Shown: positions 1 through 57,913, numbered from the stretch's first letter. The stretch: DNA of 64,000 nucleotides from Escherichia coli O157:H7 (GCF_013167455.1 NZ_CP038328.1); one strand, 5' to 3'. Numbers and translations are program-made. Notes: a model not told the origin generated them from the sequence alone.

Positions 1-5935
<5,935 letters not shown>

Positions 5936-8466: not shown

Positions 8467-8575
8467 ACGTGCTACGCCTGTCAGGCCTATTCGACTCCTG
8501 CAATGTATTGAATTTGCATAGTTTTGTAGGTCGAATAAGGCGTTCACGCCGCATCCGGCGTGAACAAATTACTCT
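8467..8575. repeat. REP/BIME-type palindromic unit(s) between cho and nadE
   Basis: GC-rich imperfect palindromes of the REP type (gcctgtcaggcctattcgac ... gtaggtcgaataaggcgttcacgccgcatccggcgtgaac). Confidence 0.6.
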
Positions 8576-14744: not shown

Positions 14745-15515
<771 letters not shown>

Positions 15516-15525
15516 GTAAGGTGGT

Positions 15526-15553
15526 AAGGTCACTCCCCAGGGGACGTGACCTT
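15526..15553. terminator. bidirectional hairpin between convergent chbG and katE
   Basis: Inverted repeat aaggtcactcccc / ggggacgtgacctt between the two stop codons. Confidence 0.45.
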
Positions 15554-15561
15554 ATCCATAT

Positions 15562-17823
15562 TTACGCCGGAATTTTGTCAATCTTAGGAATGCGTGACCA
15601 CACGCGGTGTGCTGCCATCAGCGTTAACAGTTCATCCATAAAACTACCGTCGGCGCTGTCAGCTTCCACAATCCCTTCTTCACCCTGGTCAGCGACCTTG
15701 ATTGTTGCTTTAAACTTGCGCGCGTCTCCCGCCAGCGCAATCGGTTTAAGGTGTTTGTAGGCTTCCATCAGGTAGTAGTTGGCATCGCCGTTGTCAGCGA
15801 TATCCGCGATATTGCCGCAAGGGACAATGACCGCATCGACCGTCAGCGAAGGCGCACCGGCAAAGGTAGCGGCTATAGGCAACACCGTACCGTCATCCGC
15901 AGTCACTTCACCCATTCGGGAGTAGAGCAGTTTGGCATGAACGCCTTTGGCCTTCAGCGCCTTGAGAATGGCCAGAAGGTCTGCCGATCTCACTTCATCA
16001 TTAAGTAAAATCGCTACCACGCGACCTTTCACATCACCGTCAGGAATGGCGTACAAACTTAAGGATGGATCCTTTTTCAGACCGTTGACGTCCGGAGGTG
16101 GGGTGATATTCAGCTGGTCGTCAGTCAGTTCGATACCGAGATTTTTCGCCACCGCCTGGGCCAGAGTGAGATCAATATGCGCCAGCTGGTCAACAACGCG
16201 CTCACGAATATACGGACGAACGACTTTGCTTAACTCAAAACTGAAACCATCGACAATATGGCGCTGCTCGAATGGCGTCTGACTTAGCCAGAACAGACGC
16301 GGATGGGAATAATATTCGCCAAAAGATGGACTGCGCTCGCGAACTTTATTTCCTTCCACGCGTTCCTGATATGATTCAAAACCGCCGCGTTTCGGTCCCG
16401 GCGGTGTTTCGCGCGGCCAGTTATCGTTGATCGAGTTCGGTTCGTAATTCGCCGGGTTAGTGTCGATCCCCATACGATGCATGCCGTCACGCTGGAAATT
16501 ATGGTAAGGGCAGGTTGGGCGGTTAATCGGAATCTCATGGAAATTCGGCCCACCAAGACGACTGATTTGTGTATCGGTATAGGAGAACAAACGTCCCTGC
16601 AACAGGGGATCGTTGGTGAAGTCCAGACCAGGAACAATATGACCTGGATGGAATGCTGCTTGTTCGTTTTCGGCAAAGAAGTTATCCGGATTGCGATTGA
16701 GCACCATTTTGCCGACACGCTGAACGGGCACCAGTTCTTCCGGGATAAGTTTAGTTGGATCGAGAAGATCGAAGTCGAACTTGAATTCATCTTCTTCAGG
16801 AATCAACTGGAAGCCCAGTTCGTATTCCGGAAAATCGCCTGCTTCAATGGCTTCCCACAACTCGCGGCGGTGGAAGTCCGGGTCACGTCCGGTTAGTTTT
16901 TGTGCTTCATCCCAAACGAGTGAGGCTTTACCTGCCAGTGGTTTCCAGTGGAAACGTACAAACGTTGCCTTCCCTTCGGCATTAATCAGGCGGAAGGTAT
17001 GAATACCAAAGCCTTCCATGGTGCGGTAACTGCGGGGGATGCCGCGATCCGACATCGCCCACATCACGTTGTGCAGAGTTTCAGGTTGCAGAGAAACATA
17101 ATCCCAGAAAGTATCGTGGGCGCTTTGCCCTTGTGGAATTGCCCAGTGTGGTTCTGGTTTTACCGCATGAACAAAATCGGGGAATTTATGCGCATCCTGG
17201 ATAAAGAAGATTGGCGTGTTATTGCCAACGAGGTCAAAAATACCCTCTTCAGTATAGAACTTGGTGGCAAAGCCACGGATATCACGCACGGTATCGGCAG
17301 AGCCAGCACCACCCTGAACGGTAGAGAACCTAACAAATACTGGGGTGATTTTGTTCGGATCTGAGAGGAAATCCGCTTTGGTGATATCGCTTAAGCTTTT
17401 ATATGGCTGGAAATAACCGTGAGCGGCTGATCCACGTGCATGAACAATACGTTCCGGGATGCGCTCATGGTCAAAGTGGGTGATTTTCTCGCGCAGAATA
17501 AAATCTTCCAGCAGCGTTGGACCACGGCTACCGGCACGCAGTGAGTTTTGATCGTCGGCGATGCGCACGCCCTGATTAGTGGTCAGCGCATAATTTTCAC
17601 TGCCTTTGCGTACGTCTTCCAGAGAATTAAGTTTTTCGTTACGCGTATCAGGGGCTTTCAGGCTCCCTGAGGCGGTAGGTTGTGCACCTGGCGGTGTTGG
17701 TTCAGCCGCTGGACGATGAGAGCCGTCCTCAGGTGCCAGTGAGTCCATCCCCGGTTTCGCTTCGCTGGAATCGTGTAGTGGTGACTGGTGCTGATGTGGG
17801 TTCTTTTCGTTTTGTTGCGACAT
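15562..17823 (-). CDS. katE: catalase HPII (large-subunit monofunctional catalase)
   Basis: 753-aa ORF; catalase core plus C-terminal flavodoxin-like extension. Confidence 0.93.
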
Positions 17824-32340: not shown

Positions 32341-32419
32341 GCCATCAAAACATTGACTTTTATCGCCGTAGCCTTTTCAATAAAGGTCTTTTGAAGAGTA
32401 CCAAAAGGTAACGCAAGCA

Positions 32420-32464
32420 ATGAATGCTGCTATTTTCCGCTTCTTTTTTTACTTTAGCACCTGA
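32420..32464 (+). CDS. pheM: pheST operon leader peptide (14 aa, five Phe codons)
   Basis: ATG AAT GCT GCT ATT TTC CGC TTC TTT TTT TAC TTT AGC ACC TGA = [14 protein letters not shown]. Confidence 0.85.
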
Positions 32465-32511
32465 ATCCAGGAGGCTAGCGCGTGAGAAGAGAAACGGAAA
32501 ACAGCGCCTGA

Positions 32512-32538
32512 AAGCCTCCCAGTGGAGGCTTTTTTTGT
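32512..32538 (+). terminator. pheST attenuator terminator
   Basis: Hairpin gcctccc-agt-ggaggc followed by T7, about 50 nt after the leader peptide stop. Confidence 0.65.
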
Positions 32539-36136: not shown

Positions 36137-36436
36137 ATGGCGCTTACAAAAGCTGAAATGTCAGAATATCTGTTTGATAAGCTTGGGCTTAGCAAGCGGG
36201 ATGCCAAAGAACTGGTTGAACTGTTTTTCGAAGAGATCCGTCGCGCTCTGGAAAACGGCGAACAGGTGAAACTCTCTGGTTTTGGTAACTTCGATCTGCG
36301 TGATAAGAATCAACGCCCGGGACGTAACCCGAAAACGGGCGAGGATATTCCCATTACAGCACGGCGCGTGGTGACCTTCAGACCCGGGCAGAAGTTAAAA
36401 AGCCGGGTCGAAAACGCTTCGCCCAAAGACGAGTAA
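36137..36436 (+). CDS. ihfA: integration host factor alpha subunit
   Basis: 99-aa [34 protein letters not shown]... Confidence 0.95.
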
Positions 36437-36451
36437 TCTGATCTAACTAAA

Positions 36452-36479
36452 AAGGCCGCTCTGCGGCCTTTTTTCTTTT
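36452..36479 (+). terminator. rho-independent terminator after ihfA
   Basis: Hairpin aaggccgc-tctg-cggcctt followed by ttttcttttc. Confidence 0.65.
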
Positions 36480-36536
36480 CACTGTCGAAGAGTCACCGTA
36501 AAATCAACGCCATGACACTTCAGCAGAACGGATACC

Positions 36537-47011: not shown

Positions 47012-48712
47012 TTATTCAATCTCTTCACAGACATCCTGCGTTAATCGCCGCATAATATCTTTCCGTAACAAAAACTTTTGTATTTTACCTGAGGCAGTGC
47101 GCGGTAGTTTTTCGATTACCACGATATGTTCAGGATATTTATATTTTGCGACCCGTTTACGGCTAAAAAAAGCCACCACCTCTTCCAGCGATAATGAATG
47201 ATGCGGCGCTTTCAGCACGACATAAGCGCATGATCGTTCACCTAAACGTTCATCGGGCATTGCAACCACACAGGCATCGTGAATTTTAGGATGCTGCAAT
47301 AAAATATCTTCCACTTCACGGCTGCTAATATTTTCGCCGCCGCGGACAATAATATCTTTTTTGCGTCCGGTAATTTTTATATAGCCAGCCTCATCCATAC
47401 GGCAGAGATCGCCGCTGTAATACCAGCCTTCTTCATCCAGGGCACGGGCGGTTAATTCAGGTTCATCAAAATATCCCATAAACACATTGGGGCCACGCGA
47501 GGCTTCTTCACCTTCGCAACCTGGCGGTAAGGTCTTGCGTGCGTCATCGACCACTTTAATCTCTACACCTGCGGCAGCGTAACCATCGGTGTGCATAAAG
47601 CGCGACAAAGGATCATCGAGATTCACCACCGCATGCGGCGAACTTTCTGTGGAACCATAAACACTTAATAATTTAATGCCGCGCTGCTGGCATTCACGCG
47701 CCACTTTTTTGGGGATTGTGGTACCGCCGCAAAGAAAGAAGCGCAGCGCTGAAAGGTCTGCGGGTTGTTTCTCTAGTAAATTCAAAAGATCATAGACAAA
47801 CGGCGTTGCGCCGAGCATACAGGAGCAACGCTGCTGCTCAAGCAGCGCGAGACACGCATCAGGAGTGAAAATATCTAACAACACGCTGCGAGCGCCAATT
47901 AAGAATGGTGCCGTTACGCCATGCAGAAAGCCCGTTGCGTGACCAAGTGGCGCAGGCATCATAAAGACATCCTGCCAGGTTAGATTCAGCCGCGCGCAAT
48001 AAGCCCGCTCACTGGCGAGAATATTGTTATGCGTAAGCATCACGCCCTTTGGCAGACCCTCGGTTCCGGAGGTAAACAGCACCGCAGCTAATTCATCGCC
48101 GTGGGTCGTTATCGCCGTGGTCAGTGGGGTATTGTCGGCGATAATCTGACTTAATGAGAGGGAAGAGGTGGCGGGAGCCAGTTTGTCCACGCCGACAATT
48201 TGTTGTAGTTGTGGAAGCTGATTTTGCAGCGGCAGGATTAAATCTACCGGACGCGTTTGTTTAAACAACGTCGGTGTAAAGAACATTTTTGCCTGACACT
48301 TATTAAGCACCCATACCAGTTCTGCTTCCCGCCAGGAAGGCAACAGCGGTACGGAAACCGCACCGATTTTCAGGCAGGCAAGATAGATAACGGTAAATTC
48401 ACACCAGCCTGGCAGTTGAAATGCTATGCGATCGCCTGATTCAATACCCTTCGCTAACATCCAGTTTGCCAGACAGCTCGCGGCGTGATCGAGCGCGCTA
48501 TAGGTGTACGATGCTCCATGATTATCGACCACGGCAATTTTGTCTGGCATCGCACGAGCGGTCTGCTGCCAGTAATCGGCCAGCGAAGCATCGCCCCATA
48601 GCCCTTGCTGACGATACGCCGCACGACGTTGTTCGTTAAACGTTAATGTCACTTTCATTTTGGACTCTCGAAACAGAACATCAGGCCCGAGATGCGGGCC
48701 TGTGGGATGCAT
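47012..48712 (-). CDS. fadK: short-chain acyl-CoA synthetase (AMP-forming)
   Basis: 566-codon ORF with AMP-binding motifs; the true start may be the internal ATG at 48658 (MKVTLTF, 548 aa) because the 48712 start lies only 2 bp after the ydiT stop, leaving no room for a ribosome-binding site. Confidence 0.82.
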   Translation of the reverse strand: MHPTGPHLGPDVLFRESKMKVTLTFNEQRRAAYRQQGLWGDASLADYWQQTARAMPDKIAVVDNHGASYTYSALDHAASCLANWMLAKGIESGDRIAFQLPGWCEFTVIYLACLKIGAVSVPLLPSWREAELVWVLNKCQAKMFFTPTLFKQTRPVDLILPLQNQLPQLQQIVGVDKLAPATSSLSLSQIIADNTPLTTAITTHGDELAAVLFTSGTEGLPKGVMLTHNNILASERAYCARLNLTWQDVFMMPAPLGHATGFLHGVTAPFLIGARSVLLDIFTPDACLALLEQQRCSCMLGATPFVYDLLNLLEKQPADLSALRFFLCGGTTIPKKVARECQQRGIKLLSVYGSTESSPHAVVNLDDPLSRFMHTDGYAAAGVEIKVVDDARKTLPPGCEGEEASRGPNVFMGYFDEPELTARALDEEGWYYSGDLCRMDEAGYIKITGRKKDIIVRGGENISSREVEDILLQHPKIHDACVVAMPDERLGERSCAYVVLKAPHHSLSLEEVVAFFSRKRVAKYKYPEHIVVIEKLPRTASGKIQKFLLRKDIMRRLTQDVCEEIE

Positions 48713-48714
48713 GA

Positions 48715-49008
48715 TTAGCCGTAGCGAAAATCAATACCGAAGGTGCCTGCGGGATATTGCCACTGTTCGAGAATAGTGTTACCGCACAGCACCCGACAGG
48801 TGCCGCACTCCAGACAACCGGCGGAATCAAAATGAATGTTTCCTGCGTCATCCTGCTTATAAAGTCCGGCAGGGCAGGCTTTCATTAATTTACGGAATTC
48901 ATTGATATCGGGATTTGCCGCCAAAATGATATGCGGGTGGCCCTCATCAACATGGAATTTATTGACGCCTAATTTGATGTCGACGTTAACCGTAGCGTTC
49001 TGGCTCAT
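48715..49008 (-). CDS. ydiT: FixX-like ferredoxin
   Basis: 97-aa ORF with Cys cluster (CLECGTCRVLCGN); start overlaps the ydiS stop by 4 nt. Confidence 0.85.
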   Translation of the reverse strand: MSQNATVNVDIKLGVNKFHVDEGHPHIILAANPDINEFRKLMKACPAGLYKQDDAGNIHFDSAGCLECGTCRVLCGNTILEQWQYPAGTFGIDFRYG

Positions 49009-50294
49009 AGCGCGGTTGCTCCCTTAATGCCATCTTTCAGCAAGTTGATCAGCCCAATTTTCTTCGCGTGTCCCATGATCATTTTGCGTACCGGCTGGTT
49101 AGGCTTACCGTCAATGGTGAACATCTCGTTCATGATGTCGGCTACCATTCGTGGGTATTGGCTAAACAGGCGCGGGTTTTCCATCAGCGCCGGGATCTTG
49201 CGAAAATGCTGCATATCACGCATGACGCAGCTTTGTTCCAGCTCACGTTTGTATTGCGCCAGACTGCTGGCGGAGAAATCCGCGCGTTCTTTGGCGGCGA
49301 TCACTGTTGTGGCGGCAGCCTGAGCCGATGCAATGGCTAAATCCATGCCGCGGACCGTAAAACCCAAATTCAGGCAGAAGCCTGCGGCGTCACCAACGAT
49401 CATCACGCCATCGTTAACCAGTTGCGGTACCATCGCCAGACCGCCTTCTGGCACCATATGCGCGGAATATTCAAGCAGTTTGCCGCCGCTAATCAGCGGG
49501 CGAATGGCGGGGTGTTGTTTAAAATCTTCCAGCATTTGCGGCACGCTTTTTTGCGCATGGGCGATATCAGCCAATCCACAAACCAGCCCCAAGGATATGG
49601 AATCCTTGTTGGTATAGAGAAATCCCCCGCCCATCAGGCCGTCAGAAGGGGAACCGGCAAACAGCCAGGCGGCACCTTCCTCGCCCGTAATATTAAAGCG
49701 ATCGTTGATCTGTTCTGGTGTGAGGCCAATAACCTCTTTAACACCAACAGCGTAATGATGCGGATCGGAAGCGGGAACCATTCCCAGCGAGCGGCCAAGC
49801 ATCGAGTTAACGCCATCGGCTAAAATCACCACATTGGCTTCGAGAATATCATCCCCGGCCTGGACTCCAGTGACCTTGTTTCCTTCACGAACCAACGCAT
49901 CGACGCGAACTCCCGGGATAAACTGTGCGCCCGCCTGCTCGGCTTGTTCCATCAACCACGGGTCCAGACGATTACGCAATACGGTATAAGATGCGTGTTG
50001 CGGAACATCTGGTTGCTCGCGGTGAAAATCGAGGGTAACGGCGCTCTCTTCGGTTAAGAAGGAGATTTTCTCGCGTGTGACCTTGCGTTCTACCGGCGCT
50101 GATGCTGCAAAGCCTGGAATGATTGCTTCAAGTGTGTGGGCATAAAGACGCCCGCCGGTCATGTTTTTACATCCGGCACTGTCGCCGCGTTCTATCACCA
50201 GGATATCCAGCCCGGCTCGCGCCATGACCAGTGCGGCAACGCTACCAGCAACGCCCGCACCGACCACAATGGCATCAAATTTGTCATCCGACAT
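49005..50294 (-). CDS. ydiS: FixC-like FAD-dependent oxidoreductase (ETF-quinone oxidoreductase-like)
   Basis: 429-aa ORF with N-terminal FAD motif (FDAIVVGAGVAGSVAA). Confidence 0.85.
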   Translation of the reverse strand: MSDDKFDAIVVGAGVAGSVAALVMARAGLDILVIERGDSAGCKNMTGGRLYAHTLEAIIPGFAASAPVERKVTREKISFLTEESAVTLDFHREQPDVPQHASYTVLRNRLDPWLMEQAEQAGAQFIPGVRVDALVREGNKVTGVQAGDDILEANVVILADGVNSMLGRSLGMVPASDPHHYAVGVKEVIGLTPEQINDRFNITGEEGAAWLFAGSPSDGLMGGGFLYTNKDSISLGLVCGLADIAHAQKSVPQMLEDFKQHPAIRPLISGGKLLEYSAHMVPEGGLAMVPQLVNDGVMIVGDAAGFCLNLGFTVRGMDLAIASAQAAATTVIAAKERADFSASSLAQYKRELEQSCVMRDMQHFRKIPALMENPRLFSQYPRMVADIMNEMFTIDGKPNQPVRKMIMGHAKKIGLINLLKDGIKGATAL

Positions 50295-50349
50295 GCGTTA
50301 TGCTCCCTTCCCGCTGCGTTTACAGCGGGAGATGTGGTTGAAAGGGGAA

Positions 50350-51288
50350 TTAGCGGCTCAACTGGCTAATCAGGGCAGGGACGACTTTGTAGATATCGCC
50401 CACCAGACCGTAGTCGGCATAGTTGAAGATTGGCGCATTTTTATCTTTATTGATGGCGACAATCACTTTTGCGCCGTTGCCGCCAACCATATGCTGGATC
50501 TGCCCGGAGATCCCTAGCGTCAGGTAGAGATCGGATTTCAGCAACACGCCGGAGACACCGATATAACGTTCACGCTCCATCCAGTTCTCGCCTTCGGCAA
50601 TTGGACGTGAACAGCCGACTTCAGCATTCAGCACCGCCGCCAGTTCGTGGACCATTTTCAGGTCATCCTGCGCTGCCAGACCACGACCGACGCCAACCAC
50701 ACGTTTTGCTTTGCTCAGGTCCACGCTGCTTGCGGCTTTCGCACGGCGTTCGCGACAGAGAATTTCATGACGCGGAGCAACGTAAGGTACCGTTTCTGTC
50801 GGGCACTGATGAGAGGTATCACTGGTGCACGGTTCCTGAACACCGGGTGCAAGGGTAATGATCGCCAGCGAGCTGTTGATCTTTTCCTGAGCGAACGCTA
50901 ACCCGCCATACATCCGGTGTTCGGCGCAAATGTGACCATCGACAATATCCACCGCCGTGGCATCGTTCACCAGCGCCGCATTCAGTTGCACACTTAACCG
51001 TGCTGCCAGCGCTTTACCACGTTTCGTCGCGGCCAGTAGCAACATAGCGGGGTGTTTATCTTTCAGCAGAGCAGCAATGCTTTCGGCGTAATTTTCAGTG
51101 CGTTGCAGCGCGTCGTTTTGCTCAAGAACATAAATACATTTTGGACCATAAGGCATAACTGCCTGCGCCTGGTCGGTATTTTGTACAATGGCATACACCT
51201 GTTGGCCCCATTGCTGAGCGCCGCCAAACAGTTCAGCATAACGTTCAGGATTATCGCTAAAGACCCAGACGCTGTTTAATTGACTCAT
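50350..51288 (-). CDS. ydiR: electron transfer flavoprotein alpha subunit (FixB-like)
   Basis: 312-aa ORF. Confidence 0.85.
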   Translation of the reverse strand: MSQLNSVWVFSDNPERYAELFGGAQQWGQQVYAIVQNTDQAQAVMPYGPKCIYVLEQNDALQRTENYAESIAALLKDKHPAMLLLAATKRGKALAARLSVQLNAALVNDATAVDIVDGHICAEHRMYGGLAFAQEKINSSLAIITLAPGVQEPCTSDTSHQCPTETVPYVAPRHEILCRERRAKAASSVDLSKAKRVVGVGRGLAAQDDLKMVHELAAVLNAEVGCSRPIAEGENWMERERYIGVSGVLLKSDLYLTLGISGQIQHMVGGNGAKVIVAINKDKNAPIFNYADYGLVGDIYKVVPALISQLSR

Positions 51289-51307
51289 CGTTTCTTCTCC
51301 GTAGGCT

Positions 51308-52072
51308 TCAGTTCAGGGCTTTCTTCAGATGTTCCGCCAGCTCGGCAATGGCCTCCGGCGAATCGTTATCGAGAATGATGTGCTTACGTTCTGTTTGCGG
51401 CGGTACGCGAATGCCGGTCAGTTCAGCAAGTGGTGCGCTCTGGCTCCAGCCAATATCACTTGCCTGCCACTGATTTACCGGTTTTTTACCCGCGCCGAGA
51501 ATGGCTTTCATCGAAGGAATGCGTGGCACGTTAATATCGGAGGTGACGCAGAGCACGGCTGGAACAGAGAGTTCAATAACTTCAACGTCATCTTCAAGCG
51601 TGCGTTCAATCACCAGTGTATTGCCCTGACGCTGAATAGCACTCACTGCATTAATCACCGGAAGTTGCAGAATTTCTCCGACCAGCAAGCCAACCTGCTG
51701 GGCATAAAGGTCGCCGGAACCTTTACCAAAGATCAGTAAATCGAAGCCGATCTTTTCAACTGCTGCCGCCAGCGCTTTTGCGGTATCGAGAGGCAGTGCA
51801 TGCTCAAGTTGTGCATCCTGCACCATATACAGGCTGTGCGGCCCGCGGGATAGCACGTCTTTGCGCACTTTCGAGTTCTGCAACAATGAGCCGCCAACGG
51901 TCAGCGCGGCTATCTCATCGTCATCTGTTGCAAGCTGGCTTGCAGCTTCAATGGCATTGAGATCGAACTGGCTGATTTTGGCGTCGGCATTGTCGAAATT
52001 CAGGGTGTATTCTGGAGTGACAACAATGTCCTGTTCTTCAGGCACCAGCTTAAAGCAGGTTATTATTTTCAT
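51308..52072 (-). CDS. ydiQ: electron transfer flavoprotein beta subunit (FixA-like)
   Basis: ORF-track frame 51308-52171; start placed at MKIITCFKLVPEEQD giving 254 aa. Confidence 0.85.
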   Translation of the reverse strand: MKIITCFKLVPEEQDIVVTPEYTLNFDNADAKISQFDLNAIEAASQLATDDDEIAALTVGGSLLQNSKVRKDVLSRGPHSLYMVQDAQLEHALPLDTAKALAAAVEKIGFDLLIFGKGSGDLYAQQVGLLVGEILQLPVINAVSAIQRQGNTLVIERTLEDDVEVIELSVPAVLCVTSDINVPRIPSMKAILGAGKKPVNQWQASDIGWSQSAPLAELTGIRVPPQTERKHIILDNDSPEAIAELAEHLKKALN

Positions 52073-52387
52073 GATTTCTCCTGTGAGTCGCATACGGAAC
52101 CATCTCCGATGGAAGGTAAAAATGGCCTGAAAATAGTGTGCGATAGCGGTGCGGGGTTTTCGACGGAGCAAGCTGTTTTCCTTGCCAACAATCTTGCAAA
52201 AAAAATGCGATCGCTAAAACAAAAGTGCAATTTGCGGCAATATAGTTATTCCATGACCGTACAATCTTGCATTCAGTGTAAATAATCTTGTTTAGCTCTC
52301 GCTAAACGCGGTTGTATAACCGCAATACACGCCGTATTTTATCCGGCATATATTGTTTTTGCTTGCTCATGGAATAGGGAGGTTGTC

Positions 52388-53299
52388 ATGTATCAACGCT
52401 GTTTTGATAATGCCAGTGAAACGCTGTTTGTCGCTGGTAAAACGCCACGGCTTTCACGTTTTGCATTTAGCGATGATCCAAAATGGGAGTCTGGACATCA
52501 CGTTCATGACAATGAAACCGAGCTGATTTACGTCAAGAAAGGGGTGGCAAGGTTTACCATCGATTCTTCGTTATATGTCGCGCATGCAGATGATATAGTG
52601 GTGATAGAACGCGGCAGGCTGCATGCGGTGGCCTCTGACGTTAACGATCCGGCAACGACGTGTACTTGTGCGCTGTACGGCTTTCAGTTTCAGGGGGCTG
52701 AGGAAAATCATCTACTGCAACCGCATTCTTGTCCGGTAATTGCCGCGGGGCAGGGAAAAGAAGTCATTAAAACCTTATTTAATGAGCTAAGTGTGATTTT
52801 GCCGCAAAGTAAAAATAGCCAAACATCTTCGTTATGGGATGCATTTGCCTATACATTAGCAATTCTTTACTACGAAAACTTTAAAAATGCTTATCGTTCG
52901 GAGCAGGGGTATATTAAAAAAGATGTTCTGATAAAAGATATTCTTTTCTATCTGAATAATAATTATCGCGAAAAAATCACTTTAGAACAGTTATCGAAAA
53001 AATTTCGTGCCAGCGTCAGTTATATTTGCCATGAATTTACCAAAGAGTATCGTATTTCCCCTATTAACTATGTTATTCAACGGCGTATGACGGAAGCAAA
53101 ATGGTCACTCACTAATACTGAATTATCACAGGCAGAGATCTCCTGGCGTGTGGGTTATGAAAATGTCGATCACTTTGCCAAACTGTTTTTGCGCCATGTC
53201 GGCTGTTCGCCCAGCGATTACCGCAGGCAATTTAAAAACTGTTTTGCGGAACAAGAAATCCTATCTGAATTTCCTCAACCGGTAAGTCTTGCCGGATAA
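52388..53299 (+). CDS. ydiP: AraC-family transcriptional regulator
   Basis: 303-aa ORF with C-terminal AraC-type HTH; divergent from ydiQ. Confidence 0.8.
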   Translation: MYQRCFDNASETLFVAGKTPRLSRFAFSDDPKWESGHHVHDNETELIYVKKGVARFTIDSSLYVAHADDIVVIERGRLHAVASDVNDPATTCTCALYGFQFQGAEENHLLQPHSCPVIAAGQGKEVIKTLFNELSVILPQSKNSQTSSLWDAFAYTLAILYYENFKNAYRSEQGYIKKDVLIKDILFYLNNNYREKITLEQLSKKFRASVSYICHEFTKEYRISPINYVIQRRMTEAKWSLTNTELSQAEISWRVGYENVDHFAKLFLRHVGCSPSDYRRQFKNCFAEQEILSEFPQPVSLAG

Positions 53300-53341
53300 A
53301 TCTGGCGGCGCAGTTTGTTAAGAAGCTGCGCCGCCTGCAGA

Positions 53342-54493
53342 TTATTTGTTCTGATAGTCTTTCAGGATCTGCCGACCTGCTACGTAAATCATAATTTCGT
53401 CTGTACCGCCGCCAATACGTTCACAACGGACATCACGCCAGAAGCGGGAGACGCGCGCCTCATCGGTATAGCCCAGACCGCCCATGATTTGAATCGCATC
53501 ATCAATGACTTCCATTGCGGTACGTGCACAGTACAGTTTTGCCAGCGCCGCGCTGGTGCGCAGTGATTGATGCTGATCGGCTTGCCATGCCACTTTCAGC
53601 ACCATGTTGCGCATGTTGTCAATCTTAATCGCCATCAGCGCCAGTTTTTCCTGGATCATCTGGTTATGACCAATGGGTTTACCAAAAGCGATACGCTGGT
53701 TGGCATAGCGAGCGGCATCTTCAAAGGCACACTCGGCAAAGCCGGTGCTGCGCGCGGCGTTGATCAGGCGCTCCATCTCAAAGTTGTACATCACATTGAG
53801 GAAACCCATTCCTTCTTCGCCCACCATGTCGCTCTCTTCAACTTCCACGTTGTCGAGATAGACTTCGCAGGTGCTGAGCATATGCCAGCCGATTTTATGC
53901 AGCGGGTTAATCTTAATGCCGGGCTTACTGGAGTCGACCCACCACAGGGTGAAGGCTTTTTTGGGATCTTTCGGTTGCGGATCGCGCGCCAGCACCAGCA
54001 TATACGGGTACTCTTTCGCACCGGTAATAAAGGTTTTCTGTCCGTTGATGTAAACCTTGCCGTTTTTACGCGTGTAAGTGGTAGTGGCACTGTTGTTATC
54101 TGAGCCAGCACCTGGTTCCGTCAACGCCAGGGCATAGGCGGGATCACCCGTTTCCAGGGTGCTTTCTGCCGTTTTACGTAGCTGCTCTGCAGAACCGAAA
54201 CGGCGCATACTGTGAATACATTGACCGTTGGTAATTAAAAATGCCGGAGCACCGCATTTTGACACTTCCATCAGCGCCAGCATTTGGGTGACGTAATCAG
54301 CAGGGATACCACCAAATTCTTCCGGCACGCCAAGCATGGAAATACCGTTATCCGCCAGTGCCCGCATAAACTCACGCGGATATGTCCCGTTTTGATCGCA
54401 GGTGCGGAAATACTCTTCCGGAAAGTTAGTCGTAATCAGTTCGCGAATACTGGCCAGCAGCAGTTCTTGTTCTTCAGTTAAAGAAAAATCCAT
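53342..54493 (-). CDS. ydiO: acyl-CoA dehydrogenase-family protein (putative enoyl-CoA reductase)
   Basis: ORF-track frame 53342-54547; start placed at MDFSLTEEQELL giving 383 aa; ACAD fold. Confidence 0.85.
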   Translation of the reverse strand: MDFSLTEEQELLLASIRELITTNFPEEYFRTCDQNGTYPREFMRALADNGISMLGVPEEFGGIPADYVTQMLALMEVSKCGAPAFLITNGQCIHSMRRFGSAEQLRKTAESTLETGDPAYALALTEPGAGSDNNSATTTYTRKNGKVYINGQKTFITGAKEYPYMLVLARDPQPKDPKKAFTLWWVDSSKPGIKINPLHKIGWHMLSTCEVYLDNVEVEESDMVGEEGMGFLNVMYNFEMERLINAARSTGFAECAFEDAARYANQRIAFGKPIGHNQMIQEKLALMAIKIDNMRNMVLKVAWQADQHQSLRTSAALAKLYCARTAMEVIDDAIQIMGGLGYTDEARVSRFWRDVRCERIGGGTDEIMIYVAGRQILKDYQNK

Positions 54494-54506
54494 CGTGATA
54501 CTCCTG

Positions 54507-56102
54507 TTAATGAGCCGCTTCAGGCAGGACAAAACCCATCGCCGCATCGATAAATAATCTTTCGTCCATCAGTTTGAGTTCTGGCGAAATCACTGGGGTG
54601 AAATCCATTTTGTCGAGAATATCTTTTTGTAAATCGACGCCAGGGGCGATTTCGATTAAATGCAGTCCGTCTTCTTTCAGCGTGAATACGGCGCGCTCAG
54701 TGATATAACGAACATCCAGCCCTCGCTCGAGAGCGATTTTTCCGCTAAAAGTAATTTCCGGTAGTTCCCGAATAAATTTCTTCACCCGTCCTTCCTGGAC
54801 GATATTCAATTTGCCATCGGCAATTTCTGTTTTTAAACTGCCCGCAGTTAACGTGCCGCAGAAAATAATTTTCTTCGAGGTGGCACTGATATCAATAAAT
54901 CCACCGGTACCCATGATTTTGCCATTGAATTTATGCACGCCGACGTTACCGTGCTGGTCGACTTCAGCAAAACTCAAATAACAAACATCCAGACCACCAC
55001 CGTGATAAAAATCAAACTGGGACGTCATATCCAGAATGGCACGGGTATTCACGTTCGCGCCAAAGGCGATACCCTGTGAAGTAATTCCACCAATCGGACC
55101 TGTTTCTACCGTCAGAATAAAGTCATCAGCACAACCTTCTTCCCGGGCGACCAGGCCAATGCCGTCAGCAATACCGACGCCGACATTCCCCACCGCGCCT
55201 TTACGCATTTCGAATAATGCACGCCGTGCAACTAATTTACGTTGGTTTAGGGGCAGGCTAAGTTTGGTGCTGTCATCAAGGGTGAAGTCACCAGAAATAA
55301 AGCGGTTAACCGGCGCACCGCCATATAGTTGGCTTTGATCCGGATCGACCACCACAATATCCACCAGATAACCCGGAATACGGACAGATTTAGGATGCAG
55401 TGTGGCTTTCTTAACCATTTTCTGCACCTGCATCATCACAATACCGCCGTTATTGTGCACCGCCTGGGCAATAACCAATGCGTCGAGATACATCACCTCA
55501 TCTTCAAAAGTGGCGTAGCCTTCACTGTCGCAGGTGGTAGCGCGAATGAAAGCAATATCTGGCGCAATTGCTTTGTAATAGAGATATTCTTTGTTATCAA
55601 ACTCGACCAGTTTAATCAGGTCTTCTTTAGTGACTTCATTCAGTTTGCCGCCTTGCTGGCGTGGATCGACAAATGTCCCGATGCCAATATCACTAATAAT
55701 ACCAGGCTGGTGGGCTGCGGCGGCGCGTAAGGTTTGTGTAAGTACACCTTGTGGATAGTTATAAGCAATAATTTTATTTTGTTCTGCGAGATCAGAAATA
55801 CGCGGCGATTGTCCCCAGTGACCGCATAATGCCCATTTCACCAGACCTTCTTGCGCCAGCGGACTAATACCGCGGTCGGCGCGATCGCCAAGCCCTGTTG
55901 GACTAATAATCGATAAATTACGTGGCGTTTGAGTCTGTTTATATTTATCAGCAAGAGCAGTAATTAACGTGGTGGCTTCCAGAATACCGCCGCCAGCGCC
56001 TAACACACAAAGTGTTGCTTCGTCGGGAATATAATTCACCGCTTCCTGTGCCGACAGGACCGGCACTCGTCCATTAATACGAGGTGGTTTTACAGGTTTC
56101 AT
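54507..56102 (-). CDS. ydiF: family-I CoA-transferase (acetate/short-chain acyl-CoA transferase, fused subunits)
   Basis: 531-aa ORF. Confidence 0.85.
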   Translation of the reverse strand: MKPVKPPRINGRVPVLSAQEAVNYIPDEATLCVLGAGGGILEATTLITALADKYKQTQTPRNLSIISPTGLGDRADRGISPLAQEGLVKWALCGHWGQSPRISDLAEQNKIIAYNYPQGVLTQTLRAAAAHQPGIISDIGIGTFVDPRQQGGKLNEVTKEDLIKLVEFDNKEYLYYKAIAPDIAFIRATTCDSEGYATFEDEVMYLDALVIAQAVHNNGGIVMMQVQKMVKKATLHPKSVRIPGYLVDIVVVDPDQSQLYGGAPVNRFISGDFTLDDSTKLSLPLNQRKLVARRALFEMRKGAVGNVGVGIADGIGLVAREEGCADDFILTVETGPIGGITSQGIAFGANVNTRAILDMTSQFDFYHGGGLDVCYLSFAEVDQHGNVGVHKFNGKIMGTGGFIDISATSKKIIFCGTLTAGSLKTEIADGKLNIVQEGRVKKFIRELPEITFSGKIALERGLDVRYITERAVFTLKEDGLHLIEIAPGVDLQKDILDKMDFTPVISPELKLMDERLFIDAAMGFVLPEAAH

Positions 56103-56246
56103 TGTTAATTCCTGATTCAGGTGTGATTTTCCCTACGCCAGATGGATAATTAGCGCACAGAGACTCACGAAATATTTTTATTAAATACGGTTGAATATAT
56201 TTTTTTAGTTCGGCGGGGGAGGATATTCCCGCCGAAATATTATTGC

Positions 56247-57005
56247 TTATGCCTGATGTAAAATAGTTAATACTGTGCGCAAATCATTTACCGAGATTTG
56301 CCCTGGCGCAGAGGCTTTTTTTACCGCACCAAAAGTTGCCGCCGAGCCAAATACTTCACCAGCCAGACGAGAAATTACGCCAGTTTTTGCCATTGACATC
56401 GTGATGATTGGACGATCGGCATACTGCTCCTGCATCTCCAGGGTCGCGGCAAGCAACGCCAGCACATCGCTGGTACTTTGCGGCATCAGCGCAATCTTAG
56501 GAATATCGGCGTCGAAGGACTGCATTTTGCGCAGACGGGCAATGATTTCTTCGGCTTCCGGCGTTTTATGGAAGTCATGGTTGGACATGACAACTTTCAC
56601 ATCATGCGCGTGGGCGTAGGCGACGGTTTCTTTAACCTGATCATCGCCGGTAAATAACTCCAGATCGATCATATCAACCAGGCCGCTGTCGATGGCTGCA
56701 CGATTGAGAGCAATATAAGCCTCGGTGGAAATCGCCTGCTCGCCGCCTTCTTTGGCACTGCGGAAGGTAAACAGCAGCGGTTTTTCTGGCATGGTTTCAC
56801 GGAGAATTTTTGCCGCCGCCATGACAGACTCCACATTGGAGAGGTCGGCAAAGTGGTCCACACGCCATTCCAGAATATCAAAGTCCGCTTCACGATAGGC
56901 GAGAGCTTCGGATTTCACTCGGGCGATATCTTTCGCCATCAGCGAGACGATGATTTTAGGTGCGCCCGTACCAATGACGAGATCTTTTACAGTTACGGTT
57001 TTCAT
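56247..57005 (-). CDS. aroD: 3-dehydroquinate dehydratase type I
   Basis: 252-aa ORF. Confidence 0.92.
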
Positions 57006-57035
57006 TTTTTACCCTTTCTGCACGCGGTCAGCCTG

Positions 57036-57902
57036 TCAGGCACCGAACCCCATGACCTGTTTAACATATTCCAGAGGGAAATCTTTGCCAGTCCATAACG
57101 TGAACTGTTCAGCCCCTTGCCACAACAACATGCCGTATCCATCAATCGTTTTGCAACCAGCTTGTTGCGCCTGCTGCAATAACTTCGTCATATGCGGGTT
57201 ATACACGCATTCAGTGACCAGCAGTCCCGGATGTAACAGACTGATATCATTAACCAATGATTTATTCTCAAGGGGTTTCATACCCACTTTTGTGCCATTG
57301 GTTAAAATGTCGGCGGAAGCCAGGGCTTCAGCAAAGGCTTGCTGATCGGCGAGATCGGTAACCGTGACGACACAATCGGTGTTTTCGTTAACCCGCTGCG
57401 CGAAGGCGAGGGCTTTATCGAAGAACTTATCCCGACGGTTAAAGAGTTTAATTTCTTTTAAACCTTCAATTGCCCCCTGCGCGCCAATCGCCGTTGAGGC
57501 ACCTCCGGCCCCTAACAGCACCATTGTTTTGCCTTTGATATCAAAACCGCTCTCTTTAATGGCGCGAATATGGCCCGTGCCGTCGGTGTTATAGCCGCGC
57601 AGGTAGCCATCATCATTAACGATGGTGTTGATGGCACCCACCAGTTTGGCTGCTGGCGTTAATTCATCAACATATTCACACGCCAGTTGTTTGTTCGGCA
57701 TTGATACACCAGTTCCGCGCATTTTTAGAGCTTTTAATCCTTCAATTGCTCCGGGAAAGCTATCGTTATCCACTTCGAAGGCCATATAGGTAAATGGCAA
57801 TCCCGCTTTTTCTAAGGCTTTATTCTGCATTTCAGGCGATAAACTGTGGCGGATAGGATAAGCCATCAACCCAATCAATTCGTATTTTGCGGTAACATCC
57901 AT
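57036..57902 (-). CDS. ydiB: quinate/shikimate 5-dehydrogenase (NAD(P)-dependent, AroE paralog)
   Basis: 288-aa ORF with Rossmann motif (LLGAGGAS). Confidence 0.9.
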
Positions 57903-57913
57903 AATTAACTCCT

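Follow-up and report, generated by a model that had tools for sequence, protein, structure and literature searches.

Positions 47012 to 56102 of a 64,000-nucleotide stretch of the Escherichia coli O157:H7 chromosome (NZ_CP038328.1; the whole stretch is called the window here) hold the ydiF-ydiO, ydiP, and ydiQRST-fadK genes. The interpretation favored here, at a probability of about 0.7, is that they encode a redox module acting on the carbon-carbon double bond of CoA thioesters, linked to the quinone pool and paralogous to the caiABC-fixABCX system. Judging from motifs, the redox chain is probably Cai/Fix-like and non-bifurcating, and gene neighborhoods in other bacteria suggest that the functional unit probably extends to position 59179, taking in aroD, ydiB, and ydiN. 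As a sequence feature the locus is already known and annotated in E. coli; what is new is the comparative evidence joining the quinate/shikimate genes to the unit, together with a motif-level argument against electron bifurcation.

A parallel with fixABCX-caiA had been drawn in an initial annotation of this DNA, and it is borne out by comparison with the E. coli proteins: YdiQ is 56% identical to FixA, YdiR 45% to FixB, YdiS 61% to FixC, YdiT 63% to FixX, and YdiO 48% to CaiA. The family calls made at that stage were checked with profile hidden Markov models, and NCBIfam and Pfam agree with them for every protein, the FixX match of YdiT lying below its cut-off (144 bits against 166, with weak Pfam matches to Fer4_9 and Fer4_ETF_QO). 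The small and large electron-transfer flavoprotein (ETF) subunits YdiQ and YdiR score 498 bits with PRK12342 (cut-off 338) and 691 bits with PRK11916 (cut-off 528); YdiS scores 976 bits with PRK10015 (cut-off 466) and 642 bits with the FixC model; and YdiO scores 787 bits with PRK12341 (cut-off 537) and 452 bits with the CaiA model. Among solved structures, the relatives of YdiR are ETF large subunits (5OL2_A, 7QH2_A, 7KOE_B), the best matches of YdiS, which has GAGVAG at residues 12-17, are the FixC protein 7KOE_C (242 bits) and pig ETF:quinone oxidoreductase (2GMH, 90 bits), and the sole relative of YdiT is Thermotoga maritima EtfX (7KOE_D). NCBIfam matches extend to the FixA and FixB models as well. 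A FixA/FixB-type ETF, a FixC, and a FixX are thus encoded together, as in the Cai/Fix system.

The active site of YdiO points the same way. Residues 361-364 read GGGT (in IGGGT) and align with the YEGT of 5LNX, so that there is no glutamate at the catalytic position of medium-chain (MCAD), butyryl-CoA (Bcd), and short-chain (SCAD) acyl-CoA dehydrogenases. In isovaleryl-CoA dehydrogenase (IVD), the catalytic base is Glu254. Glu241 of YdiO, invariant among YdiO relatives and CaiA, aligns with this residue of the human enzyme (the fragment was checked against PDB 1IVH). Where YEGT would be expected, the sequences are IGGGT and VSGGS, and YdiO has the arrangement of CaiA-like acyl-CoA dehydrogenases (ACADs), with glutamate at the IVD/long-chain (LCAD) position and glycine at the MCAD position. 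The combination of GGGT for YEGT with an invariant Glu241 indicates a CaiA/IVD-type enzyme rather than a clostridial butyryl-CoA dehydrogenase; the clostridial protein 5OL2_C is a distant match (163 bits).

The initial annotation had also likened the cluster to clostridial bifurcating complexes of Bcd and ETF, and this second parallel is not supported at the level of residues: besides the missing YEGT glutamate of YdiO, YdiQ lacks the DGDTAQ motif and YdiT has cysteines for only one iron-sulfur cluster. At the second nucleotide site, 216 bifurcating ETFs have the signature DGDTAQ, whose threonine is 100% conserved, and 449 canonical ETFs have DDDSNQ (PMC8958531). Residues 121-126 of YdiQ, in ungapped alignment to the DGDTAQ of CarD, LctB, and Clostridioides difficile EtfB, read DLYAQQ, a sequence that is invariant in five clade members, E. 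coli FixA and relatives from Desulfovibrio, Pectobacteriaceae, and E. albertii among them. It differs from the group 2 (bifurcating) “zipper” and shares only its first and last positions with the DDDSNQ that marks the AMP site of canonical, group 1 ETFs; in addition, one of the two threonines required for the bifurcating FAD aligns with a proline. In YdiR, which has H124-R125 there, the bifurcating-site arginine (R165 in R. palustris, R146 in A. fermentans) falls on the histidine when the alignment is ungapped and on the arginine when a one-residue gap is allowed; E. coli FixB has H-M. YdiT contains five cysteines (45, 65, 68, 71, 75), against four in E. coli FixX and nine in 7KOE_D, and the N-terminal CxxxC...C..CC block is absent: by cysteine count only, it would ligate one [4Fe-4S] cluster, not the two of FixX/EtfX proteins from diazotrophs and Thermotoga. 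This ETF clade therefore fits neither the bifurcating nor the canonical definition, and bifurcation is treated as unlikely.

The alternative would be flavin-based electron bifurcation, either in the manner of Bcd-EtfAB (from NADH to enoyl-CoA and ferredoxin) or in that of FixABCX/EtfABCX (from NADH to quinone and ferredoxin or flavodoxin). Scored over the whole sequence, the nearest solved relatives are indeed bifurcating proteins, namely the ETFs CarDE, LctBC, and C. difficile EtfAB for YdiQ and YdiR and the EtfCX part of 7KOE for YdiS and YdiT, and ferredoxin coupling is assumed in engineered reverse beta-oxidation models. Against it stand DLYAQQ and the proline in YdiQ, the missing second-cluster ligands of YdiT, and the missing Bcd glutamate of YdiO, and in the RefSeq annotation the cluster carries no ferredoxin or flavodoxin partner gene. 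Taken together, these make bifurcation quite improbable here.

Two enzymes are available for making the CoA ester. FadK matches NCBIfam PRK06087 at 1088 bits (cut-off 736; aligned over residues 1-547 of 548) and has intact adenylation motifs (TSGTEGLPKG at 196-205, YGSTE at 334-338) and the C-terminal catalytic lysine (SGKI at 523-526), the hallmarks of AMP-forming acyl-CoA synthetases of the ANL superfamily; it is only 29% identical to CaiC. Its start is annotated in two ways, giving 548 residues in O157 RefSeq (ATG at 48658) and 566 in K-12 NC_000913.3 (ATG at 48712, 2 nt past the ydiT stop). The shorter form is favored by the family model and by a 73%-identical Pectobacteriaceae orthologue that begins at the same methionine. 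The 56-nt gap that the short form leaves (48659-48714) contains a hairpin at 48682-48702, the fold of 48650-48720 having a free energy of -21.3 kcal/mol (z -2.2). YdiF belongs to family I of the CoA-transferases: it matches Pfam CoA_trans (E 4e-49) and, over its full 531 residues at 1193 bits, the PDB entries 2AHU/2AHV/2AHW (“putative enzyme ydiF”), and it has both family motifs, EXGXXG as ETGPIG at 333-338, with catalytic Glu333, and GXGGF as GTGGF at 398-402.

Assuming that these proteins act together, a carboxylic acid would be converted to its CoA ester by FadK, at the cost of ATP and as a primer in the manner of CaiC, and/or by YdiF, which would recycle CoA from product to substrate. YdiO, as a CaiA-like flavoenzyme with Glu241 as base, would interconvert saturated and 2-enoyl thioesters, and electrons would pass between it and the YdiQ/YdiR ETF, the single [4Fe-4S] cluster of YdiT, and membrane-associated YdiS, to or from (mena/ubi)quinone, with no bifurcation step in the scheme. 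The AraC-type protein YdiP would control divergent promoters in response to a ligand.

Several points weigh against this scheme. Electrons could flow either way; the path itself is drawn from homology, and its non-bifurcating character and single iron-sulfur cluster from motifs only. The literature searched contains no reconstitution of YdiO with YdiQR or YdiST. According to a 2022 review, YdiQR was proposed to serve anaerobic growth on fatty acids only from its proximity to fadK, and “experimental evidence is lacking”; the review further notes that induction of fadK under anaerobic conditions is not borne out by transcriptomes and that the gene is not known to be controlled by FadR or CRP. 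A 2023 review finds the relevance of YdiQRST to catalysis in engineered reverse beta-oxidation unclear. There is also a point from gene context: the nearest counterpart (67-76%) of the ETF/FixCX/FadK half of the E. coli locus is in a Pectobacteriaceae cluster in which these genes pair with a different ACAD, so the electron conduit may be generic and serve several dehydrogenases.

The neighborhoods of YdiO relatives in other bacteria indicate that the unit was drawn too narrowly in the initial annotation, since they tie in the adjoining aroD-ydiB-ydiN. A homology search with YdiO was followed by inspection of the contigs encoding relatives and by a tblastn matrix over 97 ACAD-centered loci; 80 of these were matches listed in a scan of genome contigs, mostly generic ACADs, which served as a negative control and among which Citrobacter, E. 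albertii, and Eggerthellaceae were informative. YdiB- or AroD-like genes occur in all 10 of the loci in which YdiO is at least 76% identical and the flank is adequate, and in none of the other 87, which comprise a sister group, cai loci, Eggerthellaceae loci, and generic ACADs. The orthologue loci (YdiO 76-97% identical) come from E. coli, Citrobacter, Sutterella, and four further contigs, with host G+C fractions of 0.42-0.59. Each has orthologues of YdiF, AroD, and YdiN, and nine of the ten have YdiB, the exception being L095. AroD orthologues beside YdiF, YdiO, and the ETF genes are 64-80% identical (the window AroD scores 292 bits with TIGR01093), YdiB orthologues 74-92% (the window YdiB scores 668 bits with PRK12749), and related major facilitator superfamily (MFS) genes, 45-85% identical, adjoin YdiB or YdiF in every orthologous cluster. 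The embedded copies are genuine orthologues, at 77% (YdiB) and 69% (AroD) identity to E. coli, the Sutterella YdiB scoring above the curated equivalog cut-off.

The linkage withstands rearrangement. Five gene orders are found among the orthologue loci, and in three of them YdiB/AroD stand between the ETF genes or immediately follow them. Citrobacter and contig L092 have the E. coli order, in which ydiN, ydiB, and aroD immediately precede ydiF on its own strand, the successive junctions in the window measuring 11, 30, and 144 nt. In Sutterella and L094, FixX-FixC-ETF is divergent from MFS-YdiB-AroD-YdiF-YdiO; L010 reads MFS-YdiF-YdiO-ETFbeta-ETFalpha-YdiB-AroD-FixC-FixX; L095 has AroD alone between ETFalpha and FixC; and L093 has YdiB-AroD directly after the ETF genes and no FixCX. 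Sutterella (L096/L097) has YdiN, YdiB, AroD, YdiF, YdiO, ETF, and FixCX in common with positions 49005-59179 of the window, at 54-84% protein identity (84% for YdiO), with no FadK-like gene within the sequence examined. Since Sutterella is a betaproteobacterium and the hosts range so widely in G+C, the gene set appears to have moved between lineages as a unit, by horizontal transfer among gut Proteobacteria.

Individual contigs add further detail. In L093, YdiB-AroD are followed (15197-17125) by genes for an ApbA-like reductase, a MaoC-type dehydratase, and a glyoxalase-fold protein, which suggests further CoA-ester processing in that organism. In L092 (YdiO 87-88%), NiFe-hydrogenase genes (1-4573) lie directly upstream of the MFS-YdiB-AroD-YdiF-YdiO array, and a YdiL-family gene (19716-20072) follows FadK; E. 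coli ydiL is on the other side, past ydiM.

A core of YdiO-like ACAD, ETF, FixCX, and FadK-like ligase recurs in Enterobacterales and Desulfovibrio. In a sister group with YdiO at 62-67% identity, made up of D. desulfuricans (L004), Pectobacteriaceae CE70 (L006/L007), E. albertii (L008/L014), and a metagenome contig (L011), the ACAD is accompanied by another ACAD, by an MFS transporter, and, in all but L006/L007, by a CaiB-type CoA-transferase (CoA_transf_3). Some of these loci add ETF, FixCX, a FadK-like ligase, or a desulfoferrodoxin-domain gene, L011 being without ETF, FixCX, and ligase; none has YdiF, YdiB, or AroD. The MFS and AraC-type genes of the sister clusters were considered as counterparts of YdiN and YdiP and rejected, at 21-22% and 20% identity. 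The E. albertii sister cluster forms an island between ung and SpoU-methylase/trxC genes. Near the family boundary, a YdiO homologue 74% identical (L009) is solitary, so that clustering is not universal there.

What does the module act on? One possibility, suggested by gene context and chemical logic, is that the native substrate may be a cyclohex-1-ene-carbonyl-CoA derived from quinate or shikimate, instead of or beside straight-chain acyl-CoA. As cyclohex-1-ene-1-carboxylates, shikimate and 3-dehydroshikimate give CoA esters that are 2-enoyl-CoAs, and quinate is the matching alpha-hydroxy acid. CoA-dependent reduction of these acids would then let them serve as anaerobic electron acceptors: YdiN would import them; YdiB and AroD would take quinate through 3-dehydroquinate and then 3-dehydroshikimate on to shikimate, so that an alpha-hydroxy acid is, in net terms, dehydrated to a 2-enoate; YdiF, with FadK as its primer, would form shikimoyl-CoA; YdiO would reduce C1=C2 with quinol electrons arriving via YdiST and YdiQR; and YdiF would move the CoA to the next substrate, freeing 3,4,5-trihydroxycyclohexane-1-carboxylate. 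The conversion of quinate to shikimate through YdiB, AroD, and YdiB again needs no radical chemistry.

This proposal is tentative, at somewhat less than an even chance. In its favor are the confinement of YdiB/AroD-like genes to the 10 closest loci among 97, the persistence of true orthologues through five gene orders and a broad G+C range, and the transfer of the whole set as a unit. The second-best NCBIfam family of FadK, and its best foreign one, is cyclohexanecarboxylate-CoA ligase (419 bits), YdiO weakly matches cyclohexane-carbonyl-CoA dehydrogenase models, and the C6-C8 optimum of FadK fits the size of a C7 alicyclic acid. In a shikimate-accumulating strain ydiQRST were among the most differentially expressed genes, at 20-32 fold, although the direction and cause of the change are not clear from the tables. 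Against it, aroD is the housekeeping dehydroquinase of E. coli, whose location may have other reasons, and a 144-bp gap with a hairpin separates it from ydiF; FixCX is absent in L093 and YdiB in L095; and the published phenotypes concern fatty acids and butyrate, YdiF having been assayed with short acids only. The literature searched shows no functional link of ydiO or ydiF with shikimate.

Publications on the locus name fatty acids as substrates. Genetic work ties ydiO, ydiQRST, and fadK to the oxidation of fatty acids or butyrate under anaerobic conditions with nitrate or tetrathionate available, and ydiO is required in a fadE background. A 2022 review, summarizing Campbell 2003 and Morgan-Kiss 2004, reports that use of fatty acids is abolished in a fadD fadK double mutant and that the activity of FadK, low overall, is highest on C6-C8 acids. 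In Salmonella, ydiFO, ydiQRST, and fadHIJK are counted by a network analysis as anaerobic beta-oxidation genes that decay in extraintestinal serovars, and ydiQRSTD, according to reviews of the butyrate work, serve anaerobic butyrate utilization and are deleted in S. Typhi. The statement in the initial annotation that substrate and inducer were not firmly established is therefore half right: it passed over the published C6-C8, anaerobic beta-oxidation, and Salmonella butyrate assignments, while a 2019 y-ome paper, which lists ydiO among poorly evidenced genes, and the 2022 review do call the evidence limited or lacking. Its suggestion of hydroaromatic acids as inducers is the best lead.

On a fatty-acid-only explanation, FadK and YdiF would activate butyrate and other C4-C8 acids, YdiO would be the anaerobic counterpart of FadE, YdiQRST would pass electrons to quinone for nitrate, tetrathionate, or dimethyl sulfoxide respiration, FadIJ encoded elsewhere would complete the cycle, and aroD, ydiB, and ydiN would be incidental. 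The double mutant, the ydiO requirement, the title of Gulevich 2016, and the Salmonella work as cited in reviews all speak for it, as does the best foreign NCBIfam match of YdiF, FadX of the Staphylococcus aureus fad operon. It leaves unexplained why YdiB, AroD, and MFS orthologues are kept with and inside the cluster across taxa. Save for the MaoC gene in L093, no version of the cluster has a hydratase, dehydrogenase, or thiolase gene, and neither these co-located genes nor the FadR operator of a fad regulon member are found here; FadR- and CRP-like sites do not rise above chance, and neither control by FadR/CRP nor induction under anaerobic conditions is reported. The action of FadK on fatty acids is said to be low, and YdiO is of CaiA/IVD rather than Bcd/SCAD type. 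Straight-chain C4-C8 acyl-CoAs are a serious candidate with experimental support, mostly indirect, but as the exclusive substrates they seem somewhat unlikely. Because the ETF/FixCX/FadK half resembles a module with a different ACAD, a role in fatty-acid oxidation and one in quinate/shikimate reduction are not exclusive.

The in vitro behavior of YdiF raises a further possibility. It moves CoA between short acyl, acetoacetyl, and lactyl groups, making acetyl-CoA and lactyl-CoA from acetoacetyl-CoA, and has motifs in common with Pct enzymes (PMC9636275), so it could be a Pct-type lactate/propionate CoA-transferase in an acrylate-like pathway, with YdiO-YdiQR as an acryloyl-CoA reductase yielding propionyl-CoA. 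YdiO, YdiR, and YdiQ do match the Clostridium propionicum AcrC, AcrA, and AcrB models, at 234, 144, and 75 bits, but far under the cut-offs of 640, 600, and 475. Neither this cluster nor related ones have a lactoyl-CoA dehydratase gene, and a FixCX-type quinone link is foreign to the clostridial system, all of which leaves this pathway highly doubtful.

The redox module favored here would be under the control of YdiP, whose Pfam matches (HTH_18 at E 1.6e-20, Cupin_2, AraC_binding, HTH_AraC) give it the N-terminal cupin/AraC ligand domain and C-terminal double helix-turn-helix of AraC/XylS regulators; it has no NCBIfam equivalog match. It had been described as a divergent regulator, which holds relative to ydiQ; relative to ydiO it is convergent. 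O157 and K-12 agree completely (100% identity) over the 315 bp separating ydiP from ydiQ but differ at five positions in the adjoining 173 bp of ydiP, which hints at constraint on the control region. Chromatin immunoprecipitation on arrays (ChIP-chip) gave an FNR peak at ydiP/ydiQ (PMC1802558). The FNR site falls inside the coding part of ydiP, some 450 bp away from where ydiQ starts, and is weaker in O157, where C at 52523 in place of the K-12 T adds a second mismatch to the consensus. In vitro selection of bound DNA (SELEX) gave one FlhDC peak inside ydiP, and a preprint reports PtrR binding inside ydiF. Crude consensus scans of four control regions for FNR, CRP, FadR, and ArcA returned weak, chance-level matches only, with no FadR-like site at five or fewer mismatches, and scans of 46.9-56.4 kb for sigma-70 promoters and terminators showed no excess over shuffled sequence (12 against 11.5, and 15 against 11.4). 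The hairpin just past the aroD stop has an 11-bp stem and, on the coding (-) strand, is followed by an A-run in place of a U-tract, so that termination there, and hence the separation of aroD and ydiF transcripts, is uncertain.

The eight-gene compact unit first proposed matches the annotation exactly: by open reading frame listing and by the annotation that RefSeq gives for an identical O157 chromosome, the genes fill 47012-56102 from the fadK stop to the ydiF start (Table 1). The overlapping stop and start codons reported with it hold for ydiS/ydiT (4 nt, ATGA), while the remaining junctions have gaps of 56 (2 with the long fadK start), 55, 19, and 13 nt. Many E. coli O157:H7 chromosomes match the 9.1-kb stretch at 100% identity, and the proteins it encodes are 97-100% identical to their K-12 counterparts. 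At least 80% of the query is covered in 5346 of 5426 complete E. coli genomes, which makes the locus part of the E. coli core genome; a plasmid search returned mislabeled chromosomes and cai loci only. RefSeq annotates no enoyl-CoA hydratase/crotonase gene at 47-59 kb, and neither a CaiB-type transferase nor a CaiD-type crotonase is part of the locus.

Table 1. Features of the ydi-fadK locus and the adjoining genes, in window coordinates.
Feature	Position	Strand	Description
fadK (ydiD)	47012..48658	-	AMP-forming acyl-CoA synthetase, 548 aa; upstream ATG at 48712 gives 566 aa
GC-rich hairpin, ydiT-fadK junction	48682..48702	-	Terminator-like scan, RNA fold
ydiT	48715..49008	-	FixX-type ferredoxin-like protein, 97 aa
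ydiS	49005..50294	-	FixC-type ETF:quinone oxidoreductase-like flavoprotein, 429 aa
ydiR	50350..51288	-	Large FAD-binding ETF subunit, FixB-like, 312 aa
ydiQ	51308..52072	-	Small ETF subunit, FixA-like, 254 aa
ydiP-ydiQ divergent control region	52073..52387		315 bp
ydiP	52388..53299	+	AraC-family regulator, 303 aa
FNR ChIP-chip site inside ydiP	52523..52536	-	PMC1802558; K-12 sequence TTGACGTAAATCAA
ydiO	53342..54493	-	CaiA-like acyl-CoA dehydrogenase or enoyl-CoA reductase, 383 aa
ydiF	54507..56102	-	Family I fused alpha/beta CoA-transferase, 531 aa
aroD-ydiF intergenic region	56103..56246		144 bp, AT-rich, hairpin 56209-56236
aroD	56247..57005	-	Type I 3-dehydroquinate dehydratase; outside 47012-56102, proposed unit member
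ydiB	57036..57902	-	NAD(P)-dependent quinate/shikimate dehydrogenase; proposed unit member
ydiN	57914..59179	-	MFS transporter (RefSeq annotation); proposed unit member

Elsewhere in the window, four Rfam matches at the gathering threshold, all expected in this region of E. coli, are the RprA small RNA (61212-61319, -), the phenylalanine leader (32414-32538, +), and the STnc540 (36378-36536, +) and ES036 (CssrF; 8483-8525, -) small RNAs.

The locus already has a crystal structure, an enzymology paper, a use in metabolic engineering, and a story in Salmonella pathogenesis, and its physiology is still disputed. A non-bifurcating chain would matter for reverse beta-oxidation designs that use YdiO and YdiQRST. 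The linkage to quinate/shikimate genes makes the function of ydiB, ydiN, ydiFO, ydiP, and ydiQRST directly testable. Should quinate and shikimate prove to be substrates, gut Proteobacteria (E. coli, Salmonella, Citrobacter, Sutterella) would respire plant-derived acids, a dietary plant acid would join the gut electron acceptors of Enterobacteriaceae and Sutterella, and there would be a second case of carnitine-type “CoA-ester respiration,” with a role for YdiB, a long-standing puzzle, and for some ten y-genes of E. coli.

Among known systems, the anaerobic beta-oxidation of FadK-FadIJ (Campbell and Cronan) and the Salmonella butyrate use of ydiQRSTD involve the same genes and supply the published label of the locus, a label that does not account for the conserved YdiB, AroD, and YdiN linkage. 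The clostridial Bcd-EtfAB, CarCDE, and C. propionicum AcrABC complexes also combine an ACAD with a heterodimeric ETF acting on short enoyl-CoAs and have the highest whole-sequence ETF similarity among solved structures; they differ in being soluble, with no quinone link, and YdiO is distant from their dehydrogenases and lacks their YEGT glutamate. The bifurcating EtfABCX/FixABCX complexes (T. maritima 7KOE, A. vinelandii) have the same four-subunit architecture and include the best solved relatives of YdiS and YdiT, but YdiQ has DLYAQQ for DGDTAQ, YdiT five cysteines for nine, and nothing in the locus points to NADH or ferredoxin partners. In Streptomyces collinus and Alicyclobacillus, shikimate is converted to cyclohexanecarbonyl-CoA (ansJKLM-chcA) in a pathway whose CoA ligase and ACAD-like enzymes act on shikimate-derived CoA esters.

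By its redox core the ydi locus belongs with caiTABCDE-fixABCX, which reduces carnitine to gamma-butyrobetaine anaerobically and likewise comprises an ACAD-type reductase with an IVD-type glutamate, ETF, FixC, FixX, AMP-forming ligase, CoA-transferase, transporter, and dedicated activator; the FixX-type proteins of both systems lack second-cluster cysteine ligands, and the ydiS/ydiT overlap mirrors that of fixC/fixX. The two differ in the CoA-transferase (YdiF of family I, CaiB of family III), in the transporter (MFS against the BCCT-family CaiT), in the regulator (AraC-type YdiP against CaiF), and in the published ydi phenotypes, which are oxidative (fatty acids) rather than reductive. The ydi locus also has no crotonase like CaiD, a place in which AroD could act as dehydratase at the free-acid level. 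If quinate or shikimate is the substrate, the correspondence would run through the whole pathway, with YdiN in the place of CaiT, AroD and YdiB of CaiD, YdiF of CaiB, FadK of CaiC, YdiO of CaiA, YdiQRST of FixABCX, and YdiP of CaiF.

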